In this document: positions 3,509 to 34,027 of the stretch, piece after piece | How positions within the stretch are numbered: the first letter of the stretch is position 1 | Layout: each line of letters begins with the position of its first letter | Source: a virus | Taxonomy: Duplodnaviria > Heunggongvirae > Uroviricota > Caudoviricetes | Strand: one strand, 5' to 3' | IMG/VR virus record: IMGVR_UViG_2698536418_000026 | Length of the DNA: 34,027 bases | Notes under the pieces: generated by a model | Database searches by the model: none | What the model was told of the DNA's origin: nothing | Seen by the model: the letters and a program-made list of their open reading frames with translations, nothing else | Translations under genes and position numbers: made by a program

Positions 3509-5777
3509 AGCCTCCGGGCGTTTTGTCCCTCCGTCAGCATTTGCCGCAGGCACCGGTAAGGCGTTTACCGGTGCTTATGCATGGAACGCGCCACGCGAGG
3601 CTGTCGGGCGCGAAAGACCCCTTACACGTGACGAGATGCGTCAGGTGCAAGGTGTTTTATCCACGATTAACCGCCTGCCTTACTTTTTGCGCTCGCTGTT
3701 TACTTCACGCTATGACTACATCCGGCGCAATAAAAGCCCGGTGCACGGGTTTTATTTTCTCACATCCACTTTTCAGCGTCGTTTATGGCCGCGCATTGAG
3801 CGTGTGAATCAGCGCCATGAAATGAACACCGACGCGTCGTTGCTGTTTCTGGCAGAGCGTGACCATTATGCGCGTCTGCCGGGGATGAATGACAAGGAGC
3901 TGAAAAAGTTTGCCGCCCGTATCTCATCGCAGCTTTTCATGATGTATGAGGAACTCTGCGATGCCTGGGTGGATGCGCATGGCGAAAAAGAATCGCTGTT
4001 TACGGATGAGGCGCAGGCTCACCTCTATGGTCATGTTGCTGGTGCTGCACGTGCTTTCAATATTTCCCCTCTCTACTGGAAAAAATACCGTAAAGGGCAG
4101 ATGACCACGAGGCAGGCATATTCTGCCGTTGCCCGTCTGTTTAACGATGAGTGGTGGACCCATCAGCTTAAAGGCCAGCGTATGCGCTGGCATGAGGCGT
4201 TACTGATTGCTGTCGGGGAGGTCAATAAAGACCGTTCTCCTTATGCCAGTAAACATGCCATTCGTGATGTGCGTGCACGCCGCCAGGCAAATCTGGAATT
4301 TCTTAAATCGTGTGATCTCGAAAACAGGGAAACCGGCGAGCGCATCGACCTTATCAGTAAGGTGATGGGCAGTATTTCTAATCCTGAAATTCGCCGGATG
4401 GAGCTGATGAACACCATTGCCGGTATTGAGCGTTACGCCGCAGCAGAGGGTGATGTGGGGATGTTTATCACGCTGACCGCGCCGTCAAAGTATCACCCGA
4501 CACGTCAGGTCAGAAAAGGCGAAAGTAAAACCGTCCAGCTAAATCACGGCTGGAACGATGAGGCATTTAATCCAAAGGATGCGCAGCGTTATCTCTGCCG
4601 TATCTGGAGCCTGATGCGCACGGCATTCAAGGATAATGATTTACAGGTCTACGGTTTGCGTGTCGTCGAGCCACACCACGACGGAACGCCGCACTGGCAT
4701 ATGATGCTTTTTTGTAATCCGCGCCAGCGTAACCAGATTATCGAAATCATGCGTCGCTATGCGCTCAAAGAGGATGGCGACGAAAGAGGAGCCGCGCGAA
4801 ACCGTTTTCAGGCAAAACACCTTAACCGGGGCGGTGCTGCGGGGTATATCGCGAAATACATCTCAAAAAACATCGACGGCTATGCACTGGATGGTCAGCT
4901 CGATAACGATACCGGCAGGCCGCTGAAAGACACTGCTGCGGCTGTTACCGCATGGGCGTCAACGTGGCGCATCCCGCAATTTAAAACGGTTGGTCTGCCG
5001 ACAATGGGGGCTTACCGTGAACTACGCAAATTGCCGCGCGGCGTCAGCATTGCTGATGAGTTTGACGAGCGCGTCGAGGCTGCACGCGCCGCCGCAGACA
5101 GTGGTGATTTTGCGTTGTATATCAGCGCGCAGGGTGGGGCAAATGTCCCGCGCGATTGTCAGACTGTCAGGGTCGCCCGTAGCCCGTCGGATGACGTTAA
5201 CGAGTACGAGGAAGAGGTCGAGAGGGTGGTCGGCATTTACGCGCCGCATCTCGGCGCGCGTCATATTCATATCACCAGAACGACGGACTGGCGCATTGTG
5301 CCGAAAGTTCCGGTCGTTGAGCCTTTGACTTTAAAAAGCGGCATCGCCGCGCCTCGGAGTCCTGTCAATAACTGTGGAAAGCTCACCGGTGGTGATACTT
5401 CGTTACCGGCTCCCACACCTTCTGAGCATGCCGCAGCAGTGCTTAATCTGGTTGATGACGGTGTTATCGAATGGAATGACCCGGAGGTGGTGAGGGCGCT
5501 CAGGGGTGCATTAAAACACGGTCGGAGAACGCCAAGTCGTCAGCAAAGAAACGGAAGCCCGTTAAAACCACATGAAATTGCACCATCGGCCAGACTGACC
5601 AGGTCGGAACGAATGCAAATCACCCGTATCCGCGTTGACCTTGCTCAAAACGGTATCAGGCCGCAGCGATGGGAGCTTGAGGCGTTAGTACGCGGTGCGA
5701 TCGTCAATTACAATGAAAAGCAATTTTCATATCCTGGTGTAGATGAGTGGAGTGGGTTTTCTGGTTATTCAGAGTAA
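3456..5777 (+). CDS. A: Replication initiation endonuclease A (rolling-circle Rep, P2 gpA-like)
   Basis: 773-aa ORF (P2 A about 761 aa); rolling-circle Rep tyrosine motif region GYIAKYISKNIDGY and HxH-like metal motif PHWHMMLF. True start may be an internal Met (about nt 3498). Confidence 0.9.
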   Translation: MSNSASVVQRLLAHMAVKASGRFVPPSAFAAGTGKAFTGAYAWNAPREAVGRERPLTRDEMRQVQGVLSTINRLPYFLRSLFTSRYDYIRRNKSPVHGFYFLTSTFQRRLWPRIERVNQRHEMNTDASLLFLAERDHYARLPGMNDKELKKFAARISSQLFMMYEELCDAWVDAHGEKESLFTDEAQAHLYGHVAGAARAFNISPLYWKKYRKGQMTTRQAYSAVARLFNDEWWTHQLKGQRMRWHEALLIAVGEVNKDRSPYASKHAIRDVRARRQANLEFLKSCDLENRETGERIDLISKVMGSISNPEIRRMELMNTIAGIERYAAAEGDVGMFITLTAPSKYHPTRQVRKGESKTVQLNHGWNDEAFNPKDAQRYLCRIWSLMRTAFKDNDLQVYGLRVVEPHHDGTPHWHMMLFCNPRQRNQIIEIMRRYALKEDGDERGAARNRFQAKHLNRGGAAGYIAKYISKNIDGYALDGQLDNDTGRPLKDTAAAVTAWASTWRIPQFKTVGLPTMGAYRELRKLPRGVSIADEFDERVEAARAAADSGDFALYISAQGGANVPRDCQTVRVARSPSDDVNEYEEEVERVVGIYAPHLGARHIHITRTTDWRIVPKVPVVEPLTLKSGIAAPRSPVNNCGKLTGGDTSLPAPTPSEHAAAVLNLVDDGVIEWNDPEVVRALRGALKHGRRTPSRQQRNGSPLKPHEIAPSARLTRSERMQITRIRVDLAQNGIRPQRWELEALVRGAIVNYNEKQFSYPGVDEWSGFSGYSE

Positions 5778-5985
5778 TAAATATAATGTTTTAGATTGGT
5801 TGCATAATGGTAAGGTTGCTGTTTATCTGTATATGTTAATATGATTACGCTACGTACAAATAATCGACATTTCTTTTTTTTCTATATATTAATATTGATG
5901 ATTTTACTGGTGGTACAATAAGTCTATGTTGAAATTCGAGAATTGTATTATTAACAATAAAAACTGGTTCTTTTTATCATACAAG

Positions 5986-6019
5986 GACCACCTCCTTAGG
6001 AGGTGGTCTTTTACTGTTT
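5986..6019. terminator. Strong hairpin (GACCACCTCC-tta-GGAGGTGGTC) followed by TTTTACTGTTT, between convergent genes A and the cargo helicase
   Basis: 10-bp perfect stem with 3-nt loop and T-run on the plus strand; immediately abuts the stop of the minus-strand cargo gene, so may act bidirectionally. Confidence 0.45.
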
Positions 6020-8501
6020 AACGAGGATTTCGCGTATAGGTTTCAACTATGTCTGATGCACGTAATTTACATGTAATCAATTGTTCTCTTATAAATATCT
6101 CATCGTGTCGTTTATCACTTGTACAAATGGCCGTGATAAAACTGAGGATAGATGCTTTAAAACGTTCAAGATCATTTATGGTCATTATTCGAGACCCTTC
6201 GTTTAGTGTTGCGGCATATTCAGGCATGTTAGAGTGATGTATCATTATAGGTGTGGCGGTAGCAGTTTGATCATACATGTTTCTGAACCATGCACCCGAC
6301 CCATTTAACTGATTGCAGTCATGCTTACTTATTCTTTCTGCGGTTGCTCCATTTTTGCATTCAATTACTAGATAATTGTTTTCTCCCATTGCCCATAAAT
6401 TGTCAGGTCCTTTACCTGTATCATTTTCTGGCCGTTGGCTACGAAAACCGACCAAATATGCAACTTTTTCGATAGCATCTTCGAAGGGATTCGATGTGCC
6501 CTCGGAGAAAATAAGGTTTTCTATTATTGAATTAGTATGCACAACGACTTGATTCGCCGATTCAAAATTACTTCTGAGATAGGAGCTACATTCCCTAGCC
6601 TGTTCAAGTGCCGCACCATTAAGTCTATTATATGTTACGCCGATTAGTGGTTTTAATACCCGATAGTTATCGTTTGATGCAGACTGAAGCAATATCTGAG
6701 CTTCAGATTTGTCATATAAGTTTACATATTCCGCAGCATGTTCTTTTAGATAACCCTTATAAACTTTGTCAGCTGTGCTACTATCATTTTTTAGAGTTAA
6801 AGCGGCTTGTTGAAACATATTTCGTGATGCTAAGTCATATGCCAATCTTTTGTTTATAGTATGCTGGTCAATCTGCTTATTTTCCAATGTTAAGCCAGTC
6901 AATATACCTTTGCTTTTTGAGACCCAGTCAGAATTGCGTAACAGACAATAATCAAGAGCACCTTTGATTGAATCAATAGTTGTATCCGGCAGTATCGATA
7001 CCAATTGCTGTGAAAGTTGAATTTGTGCTTTCGTTGCTGGAGAAAACCTTTCTAAGGAGGAGCCAAGGAAAACAGCGCCATTTAATGCTTTGCCAAGTAA
7101 GATCACTCCGCAGAAGTCGTCGCTTGATCTCACTCCTCGCCCCATTCCTTGTTCAATTTTCTGGATAATTTCATCTTTGGTTTTTTCGCTTCCAAGCAAT
7201 AAGCTTTGTGAGACTTTATCTATTAGTCTACGAACGTCAGGAAGTCCATCTATTACTAATAGACGACATGCGGTATTTGGTAAATCAATACCATCATATC
7301 TATTAACTAGGACTACTAAGCCAACATGTTGTGTCCTTAATTCTTGTACACCTTGATAAATTGTATTTTTATCTAATATTCTGTCTGCAACATCTTGCCA
7401 AAATCTAGTTCTGTAATCGGATGGTACAATTACAACAACATTATGTTTGGAGGATATCTCCTTGCACATAGCTTTGATATCTACATCAGAAAGACTAGGG
7501 TTTATAACCTGAGGCATTAGTATCATTCTATCACCAATATCACCAATTGTTTTTGGTGTTATCGGATTAGAGAGTGATTCATCCGTTATTCCGAAGTGGC
7601 TCGCTAGAATGGATTCATCGACAAGAGTAGCTGTCATGAATATTTTTCTTCTTGCGTTTGATAGGCTTGGGATCATTTGGATTGGTATGCAATGAGGTGA
7701 TATCTCTATTTTGGAAGCACTTACAACGCATTTCGATAATATTAGATTGTCTTTTATTAATGGCCATTTGAAACTCAAGTCATCATGGTCTTTATTTTCT
7801 AACAAGATTGTCATTATATCATTTATGCTTTCTTGCCATTTCCAAAATGGAACTCTCACATAAGCATTTCTATCGCCGGATTTTATCTCTAGTGTTTTTG
7901 CACCAGCTTGTGTCATTAGTGAATTTTCAAAAATTCTGAATAATTTATCATAGGCAGGGTTATTTTTTTGAATGCTAATGGAGAATTGTTCTTCAATTGA
8001 AGAAAGGCAAGCGTGAGCATCGTCAATTATTATAGAGCCTATTGGTATTTTTTGTCCATCATCTCCAACGCCAAATGCAGAACGTCCATTAACCACTTTG
8101 AATATATTTGTAACTAAAATTTCTTTACCTGCAATAAATTTGGGGGACCTCTCATCCTGAGTTACAGGTATACCAAGTTGATTAGCCTCCAAAACCACTT
8201 GCTCAACTAGATAGTTGTCAGGAACAACATATACAGCGGGACCTTCTCCTTCATTTATACAGCTTTTAAGAATGATTAACCCAACTGAAGTTTTACCGCT
8301 TCCGGTATTCATTTTTATTACATTGGTTGGGCTTCTCCTTGCTTCATACCATTTTTCCCAGACCTCTGATTGCACATCTCGAGGGTATTGAAATTTGGTG
8401 TCTTTGCTCGGTAGAGCTGTAAATATATCTCGCGGTGGAATCGCTGTGTCGCTATTTACACTGGGCGAAAGCTTGGTTAAATCAAGGAAAAAACCAGACA
8501 T
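6018..8501 (-). CDS. SF2 (DEAD/DEAH-like) helicase fused to C-terminal PD-(D/E)xK nuclease; candidate single-gene anti-phage defence protein in the P2 tin/old hotspot
   Basis: 827-aa ORF with good RBS (AGAGGA). Helicase motifs read from the translation: I NTGSGKTS (res 64-72), Ia VVPDNYLVEQ, II IIIDDAH (158-163), III MTATL (289-293), V YDGIDLP (402-408), VI QGMGRGVR (451-458). C-terminal PD...ExK: GKGPD(700)NLWAMGENNYLVIE(714)CK(716). Markedly AT-rich compared with the flanking phage genes. Confidence 0.85.
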   Translation of the reverse strand: MSGFFLDLTKLSPSVNSDTAIPPRDIFTALPSKDTKFQYPRDVQSEVWEKWYEARRSPTNVIKMNTGSGKTSVGLIILKSCINEGEGPAVYVVPDNYLVEQVVLEANQLGIPVTQDERSPKFIAGKEILVTNIFKVVNGRSAFGVGDDGQKIPIGSIIIDDAHACLSSIEEQFSISIQKNNPAYDKLFRIFENSLMTQAGAKTLEIKSGDRNAYVRVPFWKWQESINDIMTILLENKDHDDLSFKWPLIKDNLILSKCVVSASKIEISPHCIPIQMIPSLSNARRKIFMTATLVDESILASHFGITDESLSNPITPKTIGDIGDRMILMPQVINPSLSDVDIKAMCKEISSKHNVVVIVPSDYRTRFWQDVADRILDKNTIYQGVQELRTQHVGLVVLVNRYDGIDLPNTACRLLVIDGLPDVRRLIDKVSQSLLLGSEKTKDEIIQKIEQGMGRGVRSSDDFCGVILLGKALNGAVFLGSSLERFSPATKAQIQLSQQLVSILPDTTIDSIKGALDYCLLRNSDWVSKSKGILTGLTLENKQIDQHTINKRLAYDLASRNMFQQAALTLKNDSSTADKVYKGYLKEHAAEYVNLYDKSEAQILLQSASNDNYRVLKPLIGVTYNRLNGAALEQARECSSYLRSNFESANQVVVHTNSIIENLIFSEGTSNPFEDAIEKVAYLVGFRSQRPENDTGKGPDNLWAMGENNYLVIECKNGATAERISKHDCNQLNGSGAWFRNMYDQTATATPIMIHHSNMPEYAATLNEGSRIMTINDLERFKASILSFITAICTSDKRHDEIFIREQLITCKLRASDIVETYTRNPR

Positions 8502-8562
8502 TTTTTATCCTCTTACAGGTACATTAGTTTAATTGTTAACGCAGAATTATCATTACCATAAC

Positions 8563-8662
8563 TTGCATTAAGTTGCATTACATTGCATTCATAAACGTTA
8601 GCTAGGGGCGAAGTCTGAGGTTTGATGGGCTATGGTGTCCCCTTTAATACGAGGTTGCATTA
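8563..8662. promoter_or_regulatory. Phased TTGCATT(A) repeats upstream of the cargo gene start (candidate operator/promoter element)
   Basis: TTGCATTA at 8563-8570 and 8573-8580, TTGCATTC at 8583-8590 (exact 10-bp spacing) and TTGCATTA at 8655-8662; read directly. Confidence 0.3.
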
Positions 8663-8684
8663 AAACCGCCCCATGAAGCGGGCG

Positions 8685-8703
8685 GGCGAGGCGGGGAAAG
8701 CAC
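8685..8703. other. cos: cos site (19-nt P2-type cohesive end GGCGAGGCGGGGAAAGCAC)
   Basis: Exact match to the P2 cohesive-end sequence as I remember it, at the expected position between the old-locus cargo and Q. Confidence 0.55.
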
Positions 8704-8840
8704 TGCGCGCTGGCGGTGGTGCTGATTTTATTTTTTCAGCGTCTGAGCGCGTCTTGATGGCGTTTAGATTGTGCGCCGGGGCGTTGGTGTGTCTGCGGGG
8801 TGTTTTGTGCGGTGGTGAGCGTGTGAGGGCGTGATGACGG

Positions 8841-21977: not shown

Positions 21978-22196
21978 TGTATAATGCCATCTTGAATAGT
22001 AAATTTATTGCCACAAAGGCAGGAGAGATTACCGTTTATAACTATGACAGTGAGACACGGGAGTATATTTCTGCATCAACTGAATATCTTGCTGTGGGTG
22101 TCGGTATCCCTGCATATTCCTGTTTAGATGCTCCTGGCACACATAAGGCGGGTTATGCAATCTGCCGTTCGGCAGATTTAAACTCATGGGAATATG
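20884..22196. repeat. Inverted repeat A (copy 1): H codons 91-454 plus G codons 1-74
   Basis: Mirrored at 23896..25208 (x maps to 46092-x); embedded ORF translations are identical in the ORF track (e.g. 20891..21124 vs 24968..25201, 21352..21567 vs 24525..24740). Confidence 0.9.
21427..21452. other. gix/hix-like 26-bp crossover site inside H (TTCTCGCATACC-TT-GGTTTGGGAGAA)
   Basis: Imperfect palindrome matching the remembered Gin/Hin half-site pattern TTnnCnAAACC; a near-identical site lies at the 5' end of the alternative tip ORF (22744-22769); both encode the shared peptide LGLGE. Confidence 0.45.
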
Positions 22197-22261
22197 AACG
22201 CGTTGACGTGACTCCCCTGCAGCCAGCAAACGCCCGGCCTGCTCCCACTCACTCGTGGTGA
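21974..22261 (+). pseudogene. Tail fibre assembly gene G, N-terminal fragment (first ~74 codons) fused out of frame into the antisense of the invertase copy
   Basis: First 73 aa identical to the full G at 23513..24118, then diverges exactly at the breakpoint nt 22197. Confidence 0.6.
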
Positions 22262-22694
22262 GTTTAGGACGTCTGCCACCAATACGACCTTTGGCTCTGG
22301 CCGCTTCCAGCCCGGCTCGAGTCCGCTCGACAATGAGTTCTCGTTCCATTTCGGCCAGGGCACCCATCACATGAAAGAAAAAACGCCCCATCGGCGTGCT
22401 GGTATCAATAGCATCCGTCAGGCTGCGAAAATTAACGCCGCGTTCGCGCAGCTCCTCAACCAGAATGACCAGATGCCGCATACTACGCCCCAGCCGGTCC
22501 AGCTTCCAGACTACCAGTGTATCCCCCTCCGATAATGTCCTGAGCAGTTTTTTCAGTCCCGGCCTGTCGGACTTCGTGCCGCTGATTTTGTCCTCAAAAA
22601 TCAGCTCACATCCTGCGCACTCCAGCGCGTTACGCTGCAATTCCGTGCTCTGGTCATTTGTTGACACGCGTACATAGCCAATAAGCATGAGCAT
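22029..22694 (-). pseudogene. Gin-family invertase, truncated copy (catalytic domain codons 1-~165, HTH DNA-binding C-terminus replaced by junction-derived sequence)
   Basis: First 168 aa identical to the intact invertase at 25984..26583; C-terminus reads into antisense G/H sequence after breakpoint nt 22197. Confidence 0.6.
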
Positions 22695-23106: not shown

Positions 23107-23541
23107 GTGTTTTTTAGTCCATCTTTAAATATTTTTGTGAATCCTGCGCTTAAGGATGACTACATCAATGTAAATTCATGGCCAGATGATGCTGTTGAAG
23201 TTGATGAGCAGGTGTATATTGAGTTTTCCGGATTACCGCCGAAAGGAAAAATCCGTATCGCTGGGGAAAATGGTTTTCCTGCATGGTCTGAAATTCCACC
23301 ACCAACGCATGAGGAACAGATTGCCGCAGCCGAATTGAAAAAACAGCAATTGATTAATCAGTCCAACGAATATATGAATACCAAGCAATGGCCTGGTAAA
23401 GCGGCTATTGGTCGTCTGAAAGGTGAGGAACTGGCGCAATATAATTTGTGGCTGGATTATCTGGACGCACTGGAACTGGTTGATACCTCCAGTGCTCCAG
23501 ATATTGAATGGCCTACGCCTCCGGCAGTTCAGGCCAGATGA
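23107..23541 (+). CDS. Alternative tail fibre assembly chaperone (Tfa', U'-like)
   Basis: 144 aa; C-terminus ...DTSSAPDIEWPTPP resembles the G C-terminus (...DTSTAPDVIWPELP); convergent 29-bp overlap with G as for U/U' in Mu-type invertible segments. Confidence 0.8.
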   Translation: MFFSPSLNIFVNPALKDDYINVNSWPDDAVEVDEQVYIEFSGLPPKGKIRIAGENGFPAWSEIPPPTHEEQIAAAELKKQQLINQSNEYMNTKQWPGKAAIGRLKGEELAQYNLWLDYLDALELVDTSSAPDIEWPTPPAVQAR

Positions 23542-24118
23542 CATCCGGCGCGGTGCTCGTATCTGTTGCCGTCACCGCGTCAATGTAATCCAGCGCAGCG
23601 TTAAGTCGGGCGGTTTCTGCCTGCGTCAGATTCCGTCCGGCCTGCAATTTCAGCTGAATCAGACTAATGGAAGCCATTGCAGTATCAATCAGTGACTGAC
23701 GCTGTGCTTCTGCCGCGCCTACTGCGGCGCTATGCTGTGCCACAGTATCTGTTACCCATTTCTCACCATCCCATTCATCGTATGGCGTTAACGGGGCGAT
23801 AGTGGTTGTATTTTCAGGATAATCACCCGGAGCTGTGATTTCTTTCGATTCTCCTGTTTCGGTGCTATAGATGATTTCACCGCGATGGTCTGACACATAT
23901 TCCCATGAGTTTAAATCTGCCGAACGGCAGATTGCATAACCCGCCTTATGTGTGCCAGGAGCATCTAAACAGGAATATGCAGGGATACCGACACCCACAG
24001 CAAGATATTCAGTTGATGCAGAAATATACTCCCGTGTCTCACTGTCATAGTTATAAACGGTAATCTCTCCTGCCTTTGTGGCAATAAATTTACTATTCAA
24101 GATGGCATTATACATCAT
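23513..24118 (-). CDS. G: Tail fibre assembly chaperone G (full length)
   Basis: 201 aa, directly downstream of and overlapping the H-fragment stop on the minus strand; typical Tfa C-terminus. Confidence 0.85.
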   Translation of the reverse strand: MMYNAILNSKFIATKAGEITVYNYDSETREYISASTEYLAVGVGIPAYSCLDAPGTHKAGYAICRSADLNSWEYVSDHRGEIIYSTETGESKEITAPGDYPENTTTIAPLTPYDEWDGEKWVTDTVAQHSAAVGAAEAQRQSLIDTAMASISLIQLKLQAGRNLTQAETARLNAALDYIDAVTATDTSTAPDVIWPELPEA

Positions 24119-25208
24119 GCAGCCCTCACAATGTAATTAAATGAAATATTACGTGGGCGTGTCTCTGCTGCACCGACAATACTGGTACTCAACCCCGTCG
24201 CTGTTCGTTTGTTATTTTTATTTCCTTCAATCAGACAGTTGTAATCATCATTACCAATTAACGAATTAGTGGCATCAATACCGTCCGGGGACAAGGCATT
24301 AGTTGTAGAACTTAAAGTCAGCATCTCGTCTGAACTTGGAAGATTTTTTAATGGTATTTCATTGCGTGAAATACCCGCGTAAAAAAAGGACTCATGCCTG
24401 TGAGCTTCAAAAGAGTCATCCTGAAGACTTAGCAAGGCTCGCCCCGCATCCACTCCACGTCCATCATCCCAGCCACGAATAAATTCACCGCGTAAATCAG
24501 GCAATTTATTGGTCGGGTAAGCCTTTGCCAGTTCCGGGTATTCTTCAGCAGAAAAAGCCGCACCATTGCATTTCAGCCAGCCTGTTGGCGGAGTGGCTGA
24601 AGGCCACGGAACAGGCACCCCAACCGGTAATGCAGAGCCTTCTCCCAAACCAAGGTATGCGAGAAGACCGGCAACATCCTTTCCACTCAAATGAGTCAGC
24701 GTCTCATCCAGTGGCTGCTTACCTGACAGCGCATTGTTAATGGTGGTGCTGAATTTCGGGTCATTGTTAATGGCCGCGGCAATTTCTTTCAGTGTGTCCA
24801 GTGTGGCTGGCGCACCGTTAATCAGAGCGGTAATAGCGGCCTGAACAAACGCAGTGGTCGCAATCCGCGTGGTGTTATTTCCTGCGGCAGGCGTCGGCGC
24901 TTTTGGTTCTCCGGTAAATGTCGGATTATGTTTCTGCGCATACTGGGTATGAGGATCCTGTGCGGCAATGTGGTTCCTCATCTGGTCATCCACATACAGC
25001 TTTAATTCCAGGACTTCATCATCCACGTATTTACGGGTCGCCAGTACCACCGACGGGTCGATTTTCAGCGTGATGGCTTCGGTATTCGTGACAACCAGAA
25101 TCATGCGGATAGTCTGGGTACGACCACTGCCTTCCTGCAACTGCGGTTTGTACGTTTCCGGGCAGTTCGCCACCGCAATGAGTACGCCTTCATCATCATA
25201 AAGCCCAA
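23896..25208. repeat. Inverted repeat A (copy 2, reverse complement of 20884..22196)
   Basis: See copy 1; boundaries determined by base-by-base comparison at both ends. Confidence 0.9.
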
Positions 25209-25230
25209 AGCGTCCAGATAATCCAGCCAC
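24115..25230 (-). pseudogene. Tail fibre H fragment (codons 91-454, lacks N-terminal virion-attachment part and its own start)
   Basis: 371-aa ORF identical to H residues ~84-454 after a short junction-derived N-terminus (MAGLSGRFG). Confidence 0.7.
24640..24665. other. gix/hix-like site, inverted copy of the H-internal site
   Basis: Reverse complement of 21427..21452, inside inverted repeat A copy 2. Confidence 0.45.
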
Positions 25231-25571
25231 AAATTATATTGCGCCAGTTCCTCACCTTTCAGACGACCAATAGCCGCTTTACCAGGCCATTGCTTGGTAT
25301 TCATATATTCGTTGGACTGATTAATCAATTGCTGTTTTTTCAATTCGGCTGCGGCAATCTGTTCCTCATGCGTTGGTGGTGGAATTTCAGACCATGCAGG
25401 AAAACCATTTTCCCCAGCGATACGGATTTTTCCTTTCGGCGGTAATCCGGAAAACTCAATATACACCTGCTCATCAACTTCAACAGCATCATCTGGCCAT
25501 GAATTTACATTGATGTAGTCATCCTTAAGCGCAGGATTCACAAAAATATTTAAAGATGGACTAAAAAACAC
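25101..25571 (-). pseudogene. Alternative chaperone Tfa' copy with junction-altered C-terminus
   Basis: First ~120 codons identical to 23107..23541, then diverges at breakpoint nt 25209 into antisense H sequence. Confidence 0.6.
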
Positions 25572-25572
25572 A

Positions 25573-25962
25573 TCACCCTCCTATAGCAACATAACAGCCC
25601 GATACAGGATTTGCGGCAGTCACTACGCTGGAAAAACCACGAAAGCCGCTTTTTGTGATTGCGGAAGCAGATAGTATTCCGGCACCCGAAGGTGTATGCC
25701 CCACGTGGCTGGCAACCATCACGTAGCACGCCGACGGAAAAGCGAAAGGGAAATTGTTTAAATATCCCGCATCATCCCCCAGACTTCCCCCAAACTGCCC
25801 CACTCCCCACTGGATAATAAGTGGTCTCCGAACGCCAGAAATAATTAATGGAATTGCTACATACCCATTCACCAACATAGCGCCGGTTGTTGCGCCAGCC
25901 AGAGCCAATTCCCCCAAACCAACGTTTAAGAAAATGCAGAGATTACGGCTAACTGGCATCAT
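25573..25962 (-). CDS. Alternative tail fibre C-terminal tip segment (Hv'), second copy, in the orientation expected for the silent position next to the invertase
   Basis: Identical 129-aa translation to 22716..23105; divergent from the intact invertase with a 21-bp gap. Confidence 0.6.
   Translation of the reverse strand: MMPVSRNLCIFLNVGLGELALAGATTGAMLVNGYVAIPLIISGVRRPLIIQWGVGQFGGSLGDDAGYLNNFPFAFPSACYVMVASHVGHTPSGAGILSASAITKSGFRGFSSVVTAANPVSGCYVAIGG
25909..25934. other. gix/hix-like crossover site adjacent to the intact invertase (gixR-equivalent)
   Basis: Reverse complement of 22744..22769. Confidence 0.45.
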
Positions 25963-28848: not shown

Positions 28849-31288
28849 CAATGTAAAATTACAGGTATTGCTCAGGGCTGTTGACCAGGCATCCCGCCCG
28901 TTTAAATCCATCCGCACAGCGAGCAAATCGCTGTCGGGGGATATCCGGGAAACACAAAAATCACTGCGCGAGCTGAACGGTCAGGCATCCCGTATTGAGG
29001 GATTTCGCAAGACCAGTGCACAGCTCGCCGTGACTGGTCATGCACTTGAAAAGGCTCGGCAGGAAGCCGAAGCCCTTGCCACACAGTTTAAAAACACTGA
29101 ACGTCCGACCCGTGCTCAGGCGAAAGTGCTGGAATCCGCAAAGCGTGCGGCGGAGGACTTACAGGCGAAATATAACCGCCTGACGGATTCCGTTAAACGC
29201 CAGCAGCGGGAACTGGCCGCTGTGGGAATTAATACCCGCAATCTTGCACATGATGAGCAGGGACTGAAAAACCGTATCAGTGAAACCACCGCACAGCTTA
29301 ACCGTCAGCGTGATGCGCTGGCGCGTGTCAGTGCGCAACAGGCAAAACTTAACGCAGTAAAACAGCGTTATCAGGCCGGAAAGGAACTGGCCGGAAATAT
29401 GGCCTCAGTGGGCGCTGCCGGTGTGGGGATTGCGGCGGCGGGAACGATGGCCGGAGTTAAGTTGCTGATGCCCGGTTATGAGTTTGCGCAGAAAAACTCA
29501 GAATTGCAGGCCGTGCTCGGAGTGGCAAAAGACTCCGCCGAAATGACCGCACTACGCAAACAGGCGCGCCAGCTCGGTGACAACACCGCCGCCTCGGCGG
29601 ATGATGCGGCCGGTGCACAGATAATCATCGCGAAAGCGGGTGGGGATGTTGATGCCATTCAGGCGGCAACGCCGGTCACGCTGAATATGGCGCTGGCGAA
29701 CCGCCGCACGATGGAAGAAAACGCCGCCCTGCTGATGGGGATGAAATCCGCCTTTCAGCTTTCAAACGATAAGGTCGCTCATATCGGGGATGTTCTCTCC
29801 ATGACGATGAACAAAACCGCCGCCGATTTTGACGGCATGAGCGATGCGCTGACCTATGCCGCACCTGTGGCAAAAAATGCCGGTGTCAGCATTGAAGAAA
29901 CTGCCGCAATGGTCGGGGCGCTGCATGATGCAAAAATCACAGGCTCAATGGCGGGGACGGGAAGCCGTGCCGTGTTAAGTCGCCTGCAGGCACCGACGGG
30001 AAAAGCATGGGATGCACTCAAAGAGCTTGGCGTGAAAACCTCAGACAGTAAGGGGAATACCCGACCAGTATTTACCATTCTGAAAGAAATGCAGGCCAGC
30101 TTTGAGAAAAACCGGCTCGGTACTGCCCAGCAGGCTGAATACATGAAAACTATTTTCGGGGAGGAGGCCAGCTCAGCCGCCGCCGTGCTGATGACTGCCG
30201 CCTCAACCGGAAAGCTGGACAAACTGACCGCTGCGTTTAAAGCCTCAGACGGGAAGACCGCCGAGCTGGTAAATATCATGCAGGACAACCTCGGCGGTGA
30301 CTTTAAGGAGTTTCAGTCCGCTTATGAGGCGGTGGGGACTGACCTGTTTGACCAGCAGGAAGGCGCACTGCGTAAGCTCACGCAGACGGCCACAAAGTAT
30401 GTGTTAAAACTCGACGGCTGGATCCAGAAAAACAAATCACTGGCGTCAACCATCGGCATCATTGTCGGTGGTGCACTGGCACTGATTGGTGTCATCGGTG
30501 CCATTGGCCTCGTAGCCTGGCCGGTTATCACCGGCATCAATGCCATCATCGCGGCAGCAGGCGCAATGGGGGCAATCTTCACGACGGTTGGCAGTGCTGT
30601 TATGACCGCCATCGGAGCGATTAGCTGGCCGGTTGTGGCCGTGGTGGCCGCCATTGTCGCCGGGGCGTTGCTTATCCGTAAATACTGGGAGCCTGTCAGC
30701 GCATTCTTTGGCGGTGTGGTGGAAGGGCTGAAAGCGGCATTTGCGCCGGTGGGGGAACTGTTCACGCCACTTAAGCCGGTGTTTGACTGGTTGGGCGAAA
30801 AGTTACAGGCCGCGTGGCAGTGGTTTAAAAACCTGATCGCCCCGGTTAAAGCCACCCAGGACACCCTGAACCGTTGCCGTGACACGGGCGTCATGTTCGG
30901 GCAGGCACTGGCTGACGCGTTGATGCTGCCGCTTAATGCGTTCAACAAACTGCGCAGTGGTATTGACTGGGTACTGGAAAAACTCGGTGTTATCAACAAA
31001 GAGTCAGACACACTTGACCAGACCGCCGCCAGAACTCATGCCGCCACGTATGGCACCGGTGGTTATATTCCGGCGACCAGCTCTTATGCAGGCTATCAGG
31101 CTTATCAGCCGGTTACGGCACCGGCTGGCCGCTCTTATGTGGACCAGAGTAAAAACGAATATCACATCAGTCTGACGGGCGGTACTGCGCCGGGGACTCA
31201 GCTCGACCGCCAGTTACAGGATGCGCTCGAAAAATACGAGCGGGATAAACGTGCGCGCGCCCGTGCCAGCATGATGCATGACGGTTAA
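28841..31288 (+). CDS. T: Tail tape measure protein (P2 gpT-like)
   Basis: 815 aa as in P2 T; coiled-coil N-terminal half, Gly/Ala-rich hydrophobic segment in the middle. Confidence 0.9.
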   Translation: MSNNVKLQVLLRAVDQASRPFKSIRTASKSLSGDIRETQKSLRELNGQASRIEGFRKTSAQLAVTGHALEKARQEAEALATQFKNTERPTRAQAKVLESAKRAAEDLQAKYNRLTDSVKRQQRELAAVGINTRNLAHDEQGLKNRISETTAQLNRQRDALARVSAQQAKLNAVKQRYQAGKELAGNMASVGAAGVGIAAAGTMAGVKLLMPGYEFAQKNSELQAVLGVAKDSAEMTALRKQARQLGDNTAASADDAAGAQIIIAKAGGDVDAIQAATPVTLNMALANRRTMEENAALLMGMKSAFQLSNDKVAHIGDVLSMTMNKTAADFDGMSDALTYAAPVAKNAGVSIEETAAMVGALHDAKITGSMAGTGSRAVLSRLQAPTGKAWDALKELGVKTSDSKGNTRPVFTILKEMQASFEKNRLGTAQQAEYMKTIFGEEASSAAAVLMTAASTGKLDKLTAAFKASDGKTAELVNIMQDNLGGDFKEFQSAYEAVGTDLFDQQEGALRKLTQTATKYVLKLDGWIQKNKSLASTIGIIVGGALALIGVIGAIGLVAWPVITGINAIIAAAGAMGAIFTTVGSAVMTAIGAISWPVVAVVAAIVAGALLIRKYWEPVSAFFGGVVEGLKAAFAPVGELFTPLKPVFDWLGEKLQAAWQWFKNLIAPVKATQDTLNRCRDTGVMFGQALADALMLPLNAFNKLRSGIDWVLEKLGVINKESDTLDQTAARTHAATYGTGGYIPATSSYAGYQAYQPVTAPAGRSYVDQSKNEYHISLTGGTAPGTQLDRQLQDALEKYERDKRARARASMMHDG

Positions 31289-33026: not shown

Positions 33027-33245
33027 ATGTTTCATTGTCCTTTATGCCAGCATGCCGCACATGCGCGTACAAGCCGCTATATCACTGACACGACAAAAGA
33101 GCGTTATCACCAGTGCCAGAACGTGAATTGCAGCGCCACGTTCATCACTTATGAGTCGGTACAGAGATACATCGTGAAGCCTGGAGAAGTCCACGCCGTG
33201 AGGCCGCACCCGTTGCCGTCAGGGCAGCAAATTATGTGGATGTAA
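33027..33245 (+). CDS. ogr: Late-gene transcription activator Ogr (zinc-finger)
   Basis: Internal Met of the 32964..33245 ORF gives 72 aa MFHCPLCQHAAHARTSRYITDTTKERYHQCQNVNCSATF... with the CxxC ... CxxxxC zinc-finger of the Ogr/Delta family. Confidence 0.85.
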   Translation: MFHCPLCQHAAHARTSRYITDTTKERYHQCQNVNCSATFITYESVQRYIVKPGEVHAVRPHPLPSGQQIMWM

Positions 33246-33254
33246 TTACAAACA

Positions 33255-33286
33255 GAAAGCCCCTCAGTCGAGGGGCTTTCTGTTTT
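33255..33286 (+). terminator. Rho-independent terminator after ogr
   Basis: GAAAGCCCCTC-agtc-GAGGGGCTTTC hairpin followed by TGTTTT. Confidence 0.6.
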
Positions 33287-33385
33287 GGGGAATATTCTTC
33301 ATTAAAAGTAGTGGATCACGTTTAATAAACTATGTTTATCATATACTTAAAAGTAACTTTTTAAAGTTGGACAGGTTGGTGGAAA

Positions 33386-34027
33386 ATGGAAAAAGTTATA
33401 ATTGAGCTTGATAATCGTTGGGAGTTAGCTGATTTCGCGGTCTTAACGAAAGAGTATTTGCAGCTATATGGTTTTTTTTATGGCCTAAAAGGAGGATCAA
33501 GAGGATATTCAACAATGCCTTGGGAGGGTGGGCACAGTGTAGTGAACTTTTTTAGAGGGGCTTACAGTGCGACTCCACCAGATTTACGTCCTGTAGTGAA
33601 AAAAATTCAGTATGCCTCTCCTGGCTTTATTGAATTGTCTGCTCTTATTGATATCTCTTGGCAGATTGCTGAGTTAGTTACTGCTGTTGGTGGAAGTATT
33701 CTGGCTGCCAACAAAGTTTACGATCAGGTGATGCGTACATATCGACAAAGAGAATGGGCAAAGTTGAAATCAGAGAAGCTGCGTATACAGAATCAAATTA
33801 AAGAGATTGAACTTGTTTCTGACGCAGTTAAATCACTTGAATCTGTGATGGCACTTAGTGAAGAACAACGTAAAAACTTGGTTCAACTATCGGGGGCAGA
33901 TGAACTGGTTCAGTTAAAGATACTTTTGGCTGTTTACCGACGGTTATCTCCTCTTGTTGAGTTGCAAAACAGCGGGAAAGCTAATTTTTCTGCAGGGAAA
34001 AATAAAAATTTAAAAGCGTCCGATTAA
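33386..34027 (+). CDS. Hypothetical protein, AT-rich, unknown function (possible moron or flanking host gene)
   Basis: 213-aa ORF with SD GGTGG 6 nt upstream; coiled-coil-like C-terminal half; no motif I can recognise; stop codon coincides with the window end. Confidence 0.55.
   Translation: MEKVIIELDNRWELADFAVLTKEYLQLYGFFYGLKGGSRGYSTMPWEGGHSVVNFFRGAYSATPPDLRPVVKKIQYASPGFIELSALIDISWQIAELVTAVGGSILAANKVYDQVMRTYRQREWAKLKSEKLRIQNQIKEIELVSDAVKSLESVMALSEEQRKNLVQLSGADELVQLKILLAVYRRLSPLVELQNSGKANFSAGKNKNLKASD

Follow-up and report, generated by a model that had tools for sequence, protein, structure and literature searches.

A P2-like prophage carries a stand-alone homologue of the PD-T4-10B C-terminal module as optional cargo between ogr and attP

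The last open reading frame of a 34,027-nt stretch of viral DNA (the window) encodes 213 amino acids (ORF213). A P2-like prophage integrated between cpxP and fieF carries it as optional cargo (a 'moron'). Profile comparisons identify its product as the C-terminal module of PD-T4-10B in free-standing form; PD-T4-10B is the toxin of a validated abortive-infection system made up of two genes. We regard the cargo status and the module homology, taken jointly, as almost certain. On the basis of this homology and of the mobile and defence-rich contexts of its relatives, we give an anti-phage defence function of ORF213 about an even chance. The features of the locus are listed below with their window coordinates, strand and the evidence used.

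33027..33245, + strand: ogr (ogrK), the last backbone gene ahead of the attachment region (ORF listing; ogrK annotated equivalently in L001, L066, L067 and L068)
33256..33286, + strand: Rho-independent terminator serving ogr and the F operon; stem AAAGCCCCTC/GAGGGGCTTT with downstream T-run (sequence; identity to the P2 terminator)
33280..34027, + strand: AT-rich cargo cassette of ~751 bp, leader plus ORF213 (terminator-to-arm-site distances; GC profile)
33287..33385, + strand: AT-rich leader, presumed promoter region of ORF213 (sequence)
33386..34027, + strand: ORF213, stand-alone homologue of the PD-T4-10B C-terminal module (PADLOC, hhalign and family searches)
33386..33643, + strand: ORF213 residues 1-86, predicted small alpha/beta domain with most of the invariant residues (AlphaFold; 45-sequence alignment)
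33647..33970, + strand: ORF213 residues 88-195, predicted helical, coiled-coil-like region (AlphaFold; alignment)

ORF213 spans 642 bp from an ATG start to a TAA stop, which is the final codon of the window; the right edge of the cassette lies about 12 nt past the window end. The reading frame is a real gene and not a chance frame: copies with at least 99% identity occur in 158 complete E. coli genomes, and homologues form a large family. The terminator upstream consists of a GC-rich hairpin (33256-33279) and a T-run up to 33286, and includes a 34-nt stretch identical to the terminator annotated in P2 (AF063097); a simple terminator scan missed it. Between it and the ATG lies a leader of about 100 bp with a GC content of 0.325-0.385 (200-nt windows), so that the initial annotation, which had described an ogr terminator followed by some 100 bp of AT-rich DNA, was accurate on this point. 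It was equally accurate in calling the ORF far more AT-rich than the phage: the GC content of ORF213 is 39.7% (GC3 31.3%) versus 54.9% for the backbone (window 9000-32900), and the composition of the cassette is foreign.

The leader carries a GGTGG ribosome-binding motif at 33378-33382, 3 nt ahead of the ATG. It contains no small ORF of 20 aa or more except one overlapping the end of ogr, no Rfam match and no RNA-like element conserved upstream, and shares no more than short motifs with the DNA that precedes the homologues in Kosakonia and Enterobacter. As a promoter scan returned no consensus sigma-70 match upstream of the ATG, the promoter of ORF213 is placed in the leader by inference only. 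Given the strong terminator ahead of the gene, transcriptional read-through is unlikely.

The locus of E. coli 504239 matches without a difference over 782 nt and has the gene order cpxP - int ... ogr - ORF213 - fieF. The att core is a 47-bp exact direct repeat, GACACCATCCCTGTCTTCCCCCACATGATGTGGGGGTTTTTTTTATC, found once directly after cpxP (L002, 7522-7568) and once between ORF213 and fieF (L001, 8865-8911, with ORF213 at 8141-8782), some 83-85 bp past the ORF213 stop. There is no copy between ogr and ORF213 or anywhere in the 34,027-nt window, in which the initial annotation had likewise seen none. Directly 3' of the stop codon stands CGATGTGGACGCTATGTGGACA, with repeats of the TGTGGAC type; its homologue in P2, GATGTGGTCAATGTGTGGAC, is an annotated Int P-arm binding site located 4 nt past the ogr terminator, and a matching TGTGGAC repeat occurs on the opposite side of the prophage, between the att core and int. 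Since the att core and the Int P-arm sequence lie downstream of ORF213, ORF213 is phage DNA: it sits inside the prophage, between attL and attR, and the first host gene beyond is fieF. The ~751-bp cassette occupies precisely the interval from the ogr terminator to the Int P-arm of attP, so that it is packaged and moves with the phage.

The same order of ogr, ORF213, att and fieF recurs in a record of Salmonella enterica, whose protein is 100% identical, and in Kosakonia arachidis, with a 77%-identical homologue followed directly by att core sequence. In the latter (L011, 5663-7810) the att core and fieF are separated by an ORF of 599 aa whose N-terminal region is hydrophobic; the Kosakonia site thus has a further insertion beyond attR. 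The att core itself is a hairpin with a T-run at the 3' end of the cpxP transcription unit and, as integration duplicates the core, cpxP keeps a terminator; this is presumably also the location of the 3' end of the CpxQ sRNA. The cpxP-fieF interval is a known integration site of P2-type phages, used by Wphi1 of E. coli W (PMC3032704). A bioRxiv paper naming a cpxP-fieF insertion concerns a different phage and was set aside as irrelevant.

The ogr-attP junction occurs in three states among complete E. coli genomes. The integrase type of the window is present in 777-790 of them, and the slot is empty in 586, holds ORF213 in 158 and holds a different cargo, ORF135, in 44; with a sum of 788, these states account for essentially all genomes with this integrase type. 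In the empty state the terminator abuts the P-arm, and ogr and fieF are 236 bp apart. Terminator and arm site are 18 nt apart in the empty slot (E. coli W, L073), 769 nt apart with ORF213 (L001) and 525 nt apart with the ORF135 cargo (L071). ORF135 is encoded on the other strand, and its 135-aa product is unrelated to that of ORF213 and has a signal-peptide-like N-terminus. Relative to all 5,426 complete E. coli genomes, the 158 with ORF213 amount to ~3%. P2-like prophages at other att sites (yegQ, pflB) had no cargo at the ogr-attP junction.

ORF213 thereby has the properties of a cargo gene, namely a location inside attL-attR, presence or absence with sharp boundaries, and an atypical composition. 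Of the two placements originally proposed, the moron at the right prophage end is the one borne out: the att geometry shows it, as does the finding that a single slot can be empty, hold ORF213 or hold ORF135. The other made ORF213 the first host gene beyond attR, chromosomal rather than phage cargo. It could draw on the non-phage composition and on ORF213 being the last ORF ahead of host DNA, but the att core repeat and the Int P-arm are both downstream of the gene, and in empty-slot E. coli with the same prophage type fieF follows ogr after 236 bp. Moreover, only genomes that carry the prophage match positions 516-586 of the query, which precede the att core, K-12 MG1655 and like genomes match only from query position 587 (core and fieF-upstream DNA), and the identical gene beside Salmonella fieF lies within the same prophage. 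Nor did we find the combination of an att core between the ogr terminator and nt 33386 with a conserved chromosomal homologue. We consider the probability of a host gene to be negligible.

In deposited phages, a tblastn search of 50,697 records returned no match to the ORF213 protein, and the only plasmid matches were a Vibrio replicon and a piece of Salmonella chromosome under a wrong label. The record of Salmonella phage STYP1 (L010, KX833211.1) contains the 140-nt leader of the cargo gene at 97% identity and ends at 28946, one base before the ATG. This 'complete genome' record is probably a prophage extraction that ends prematurely, and the STYP1 phage itself may carry the cargo gene.

For the identification of the protein, Pfam, PHROGs and NCBIfam gave nothing significant, in line with the initial statement that no motif could be recognised; that statement did not hold for PADLOC, whose PD-T4-10_B profile matches ORF213 with an E-value of 1.3e-34, aligning residues 3-201 to profile positions 139-346 of 353. 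The individual models were PDLC04024 (E 1.3e-34), PDLC04025 (E 7e-23) and PDLC04026 (E 3e-19). Comparison of the short forms of the family with the long forms by hhalign yielded a probability of 100% and an E-value of 1.8e-54, with the whole short form corresponding to long-form columns 143-355. By these profile comparisons ORF213 is identified as a free-standing version of the PD-T4-10B C-terminal module. DUF6575 (PF20215) was matched neither in ORF213 nor in any of 45 short forms, and searches of 45 family members against Pfam and of the family profile against PDB sequences gave no match.

Homologues with 57-77% identity are present in other Enterobacterales (Kosakonia, Enterobacter, Siccibacter), and an exhaustive HMMER profile search returned 794 cluster representatives at E<=1e-3; it was this search that exposed the long forms, a second, word-indexed profile search having recovered near relatives only. 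Short forms have ~205-240 aa, as ORF213 does, and long forms ~330-370 aa, with an additional N-terminal domain of ~130 aa matching DUF6575. Short forms make up 301 of the 365 sampled family members, in a sample drawn mostly from short-form-seeded searches. In a rough neighbour-joining tree with 175 tips there were about 10 changes of architecture, and the two architectures were largely clade-coherent; the short form is therefore an established lineage and not a sporadic truncation. In BLOSUM62-based alignment distances from ORF213, the nearest long forms lie at ~0.67-0.72 and the nearest short forms at 0.36-0.61.

An AlphaFold model of ORF213, built on the 45-sequence alignment (mean pLDDT 84.5), predicts a small alpha/beta domain for residues 1-86 and helices for residues 88-195, including one of 50 residues, and so matches the initial description of a globular N-terminal and a coiled-coil-like C-terminal half. 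In the alignment, W12, Y24, Y28, G48, G49, S51, Y76-A-S-P-G80, K178 and R185 are invariant, the latter two residing in the last helix (YRR motif). The motifs W-x-GG-x-S, QYASPG and LK-x-LL-x-x-YRR are also kept in the long forms. No catalytic motif is recognisable in ORF213. The idea of a membrane protein was rejected, as ORF213 has no transmembrane segment and a maximal 19-residue Kyte-Doolittle hydropathy of 1.35.

PD-T4-10 of E. coli ECOR65 consists of two overlapping ORFs and acts as a toxin-antitoxin-like abortive-infection system (Vassallo et al., 2022; PMC9519451). PD-T4-10B is toxic, PD-T4-10A neutralises it and cannot be deleted, deletion of B abolishes defence against T4, and B is required for defence against T-even phages (PMC9519451). 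The whole of ORF213 is homologous to the C-terminal module of B, the two have motifs in common, and both reside on mobile elements. However, ORF213 is a single gene of 213 aa, versus ~148 + 353 aa, without A and without DUF6575, and toxicity and defence are known only for the ECOR65 system.

The full PD-T4-10 architecture was absent from the ORF213 locus, which has neither the DUF6575 N-domain nor an overlapping upstream PD-T4-10A gene. Upstream of ORF213 are ogr, the terminator and 100 nt without an ORF, and a search of the six-frame-translated window with the A profile revealed no PD-T4-10A-like ORF (best E 1.5). At five of five long-form loci, a short ORF was located directly upstream, overlapping or a few nucleotides away. 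Strong matches to PD-T4-10_A were seen for three of these ORFs (E 1e-34 to 1e-44) and a weak one for a fourth (E 0.003); the fifth had no PADLOC hit. For the short forms, all-against-all BLAST of 48 loci found no neighbour family in common, and among the 141 nearest neighbours at 39 loci (Pfam and PADLOC) no family was matched by more than two neighbours.

DUF6575 also occurs with an unrelated C-terminus, in 406-aa proteins that did not match the module profile even without filters and that are likewise preceded by an overlapping A-like gene (E 1.9e-22). These loci come from gut metagenome contigs (L076 and L077, 1567-3277) and have an FRG-domain gene and an integrase nearby; the pair may represent a second, undescribed variant of the PD-T4-10 type. 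As A accompanies the DUF6575 N-domain even with another C-terminus, PD-T4-10A together with the N-domain looks, from these gene arrangements, like a detachable regulatory unit, and the C-terminal module would be exchangeable and able to stand alone. The long-form relatives of ORF213 fuse a DUF6575 N-terminus to a module of the ORF213 type, while ORF213 itself has no DUF6575 match.

Among the genomic contexts of other short forms, the Vibrio homologue is a single-gene cassette between VCR/attC-like repeats, in an array of 11 copies of a 136-nt repeat. The homologue of Pseudomonas sp. GM80 (L005 / L012, 1297-12376) lies in a small integrase-bearing element that also encodes PyocinActivator, ANT, S24 repressor, CP76 and a VapE-type primase. 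There it stands directly upstream of a DUF4917 protein matching the PADLOC candidate PDC-S21 (E 2.5e-97), and the two genes may form a defence islet in a satellite-like element. Matches to defence models were obtained for about 12-14 of the 141 nearest short-form neighbours, including PifA, ShosA, ThsB, AbiU, GajA, PDC-S21 and PD-Lambda-4_A; as a raw, unnormalised count, this is no more than suggestive of a role in defence.

Like the P2 morons old, tin and fun(Z) and the cargo of the hotspots A-Q and Z/fun (Rousset et al., 2022; Vassallo et al., 2022), ORF213 is AT-rich optional single-gene cargo between conserved backbone features. Its sequence is unrelated to old, tin and fun, with no PADLOC matches to them, and its slot, between the ogr terminator and the Int P-arm, is a different one, described neither by Rousset et al. 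(2022), where ogr is not mentioned, nor by Vassallo et al. (2022). Unlike the hotspots, the ogr-attP slot is also low in diversity, with three states in ~790 E. coli genomes. For PD-T4-10 and DUF6575, the literature found comprised only Vassallo et al. (2022) and its preprint, with PD-T4-10 additionally named once in a 2024 bioRxiv survey. What was already known is that the family is detectable by an existing PADLOC model and that the long form is a published system. Undescribed in the literature searched are the stand-alone architecture without A and the N-domain and its predominance in the sampled family, the modular unit of A plus N-domain with exchangeable C-termini, and the ogr-terminator/P-arm junction as a P2 cargo slot.

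The window contains further loci of note. An AT-rich island at 5600-8600 (GC 35-39%), between the replication gene and the portal side, corresponds to the classical P2 hotspot 1 and is occupied: the ORF at 6018-8501 (- strand) encodes an 827-aa helicase-like protein (ResIII/DEAD/Helicase_C_2) matching the PADLOC defence candidate PDC-S28 (E=0). A serine recombinase/invertase is encoded at 22029-22694 (- strand; Pfam Resolvase, E 7e-52), adjoined at 23513-25962 (- strand) by opposite-strand ORFs for tail fibre and tail-fibre assembly (Collar, Caudo_TAP, Gp53-like_C). Together, invertase and fibre ORFs suggest that the P2-like tail-fibre region contains an invertible segment for host range, comparable to Mu G and P1 C.

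Our best overall explanation, for and against which we see the balance as roughly equal, is that ORF213 is optional P2-like cargo encoding a lysogen-expressed, single-protein anti-phage factor. The protein would be inert in uninfected cells and would be triggered by infection with a heterologous phage, T-even-like by analogy with PD-T4-10, whereupon it would halt either the infection or the infected cell. Triggering would likely take place at the W-GG-S / QYASPG / K...RR surface, at the junction of the alpha/beta domain and the last helix; this conserved surface might sense or act on an infection-specific target, and the long helical hairpin might mediate oligomerisation or assembly. For this specific trigger-and-arrest mechanism, which is modelled on PD-T4-10, our confidence is lower than for the defence function and falls short of even. 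Two cases stand in tension here. Should the toxicity of PD-T4-10B reside in the C-terminal module, a copy on its own has to stay silent by itself until something triggers it. Should it reside in the N-domain, the module alone would sense without having an effector, which leaves room for a decoy or anti-defence role, or for an unlinked partner.

The decoy role would have ORF213 bind or co-assemble with host proteins of the PD-T4-10 type, or with their trigger, and so blunt an abortive-infection response against the P2-like phage; alternatively, ORF213 could be a moron with a role other than defence, for instance in lysogenic conversion. That a phage carries a homologue of just one domain of a defence toxin would suit a decoy, as would a coiled-coil region fit for hetero-oligomerisation, and such a role raises no toxicity problem. 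Most short forms, however, are found outside phages, in chromosomal integron cassettes and small integrative elements and beside defence genes, which fits a host-beneficial function better than anti-defence, and the nearest long forms are distant (~0.67-0.72, against 0.36-0.61 for short forms), unlike the close mimicry expected of a decoy. We judge a counter-defence or non-defence function unlikely. A similarly low probability is assigned to ORF213 being a non-autonomous defence component that depends on an unlinked partner, supplied by the host or by the prophage itself (for example the PDC-S28 helicase of hotspot 1). Such a dependence would parallel that of PD-T4-10B on A, and the same prophage does hold another defence candidate; yet no neighbour is conserved over the 48 loci in very different hosts and elements, and the Vibrio homologue constitutes an integron cassette by itself.

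Finally, the match to only the C-terminal 60% of the PD-T4-10_B profile might indicate a decayed remnant, a functionless PD-T4-10B truncated at its 5' end after loss of A and the N-domain. We hold this to be very improbable. Short forms are the majority architecture in the (mostly short-form-seeded) sample; they are full-length, begin at the module boundary, form clades of their own and keep all invariant residues, and PADLOC has a 244-position profile for their size class. ORF213 itself is intact throughout the 158 genomes, at the identity given above, and has no remnants of PD-T4-10A or of the N-domain upstream.

In a wider and more tentative reading, which we consider possible but place clearly below even probability, the free module would be a self-contained one-protein anti-phage system, acting by abortive infection or exclusion, with a fold absent from solved structures. 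It would be the predominant form of the PD-T4-10B family, spread as single-gene cargo by P2-like phages, small integrative elements and integron cassettes, with A and DUF6575 as an add-on regulatory layer and with the ogr-attP junction as a third, so far undescribed cargo slot of P2-like phages.

PD-T4-10 is a validated defence system whose mechanism is not known, and the ORF213 locus shows the modularity of its toxic protein, the C-terminal module being far commoner alone than fused in a short-form-biased sample. This modularity makes it testable which module kills and what restrains the killing; for such a test, ORF213 (642 bp) can be used as it stands, together with its own leader. The ogr terminator/Int P-arm slot is an additional cargo site of P2-like phages beside the two known hotspots. 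If active, ORF213 would add a one-gene family to the known defence repertoire, and if current callers require both genes, as we assume, they probably miss genes of its type.
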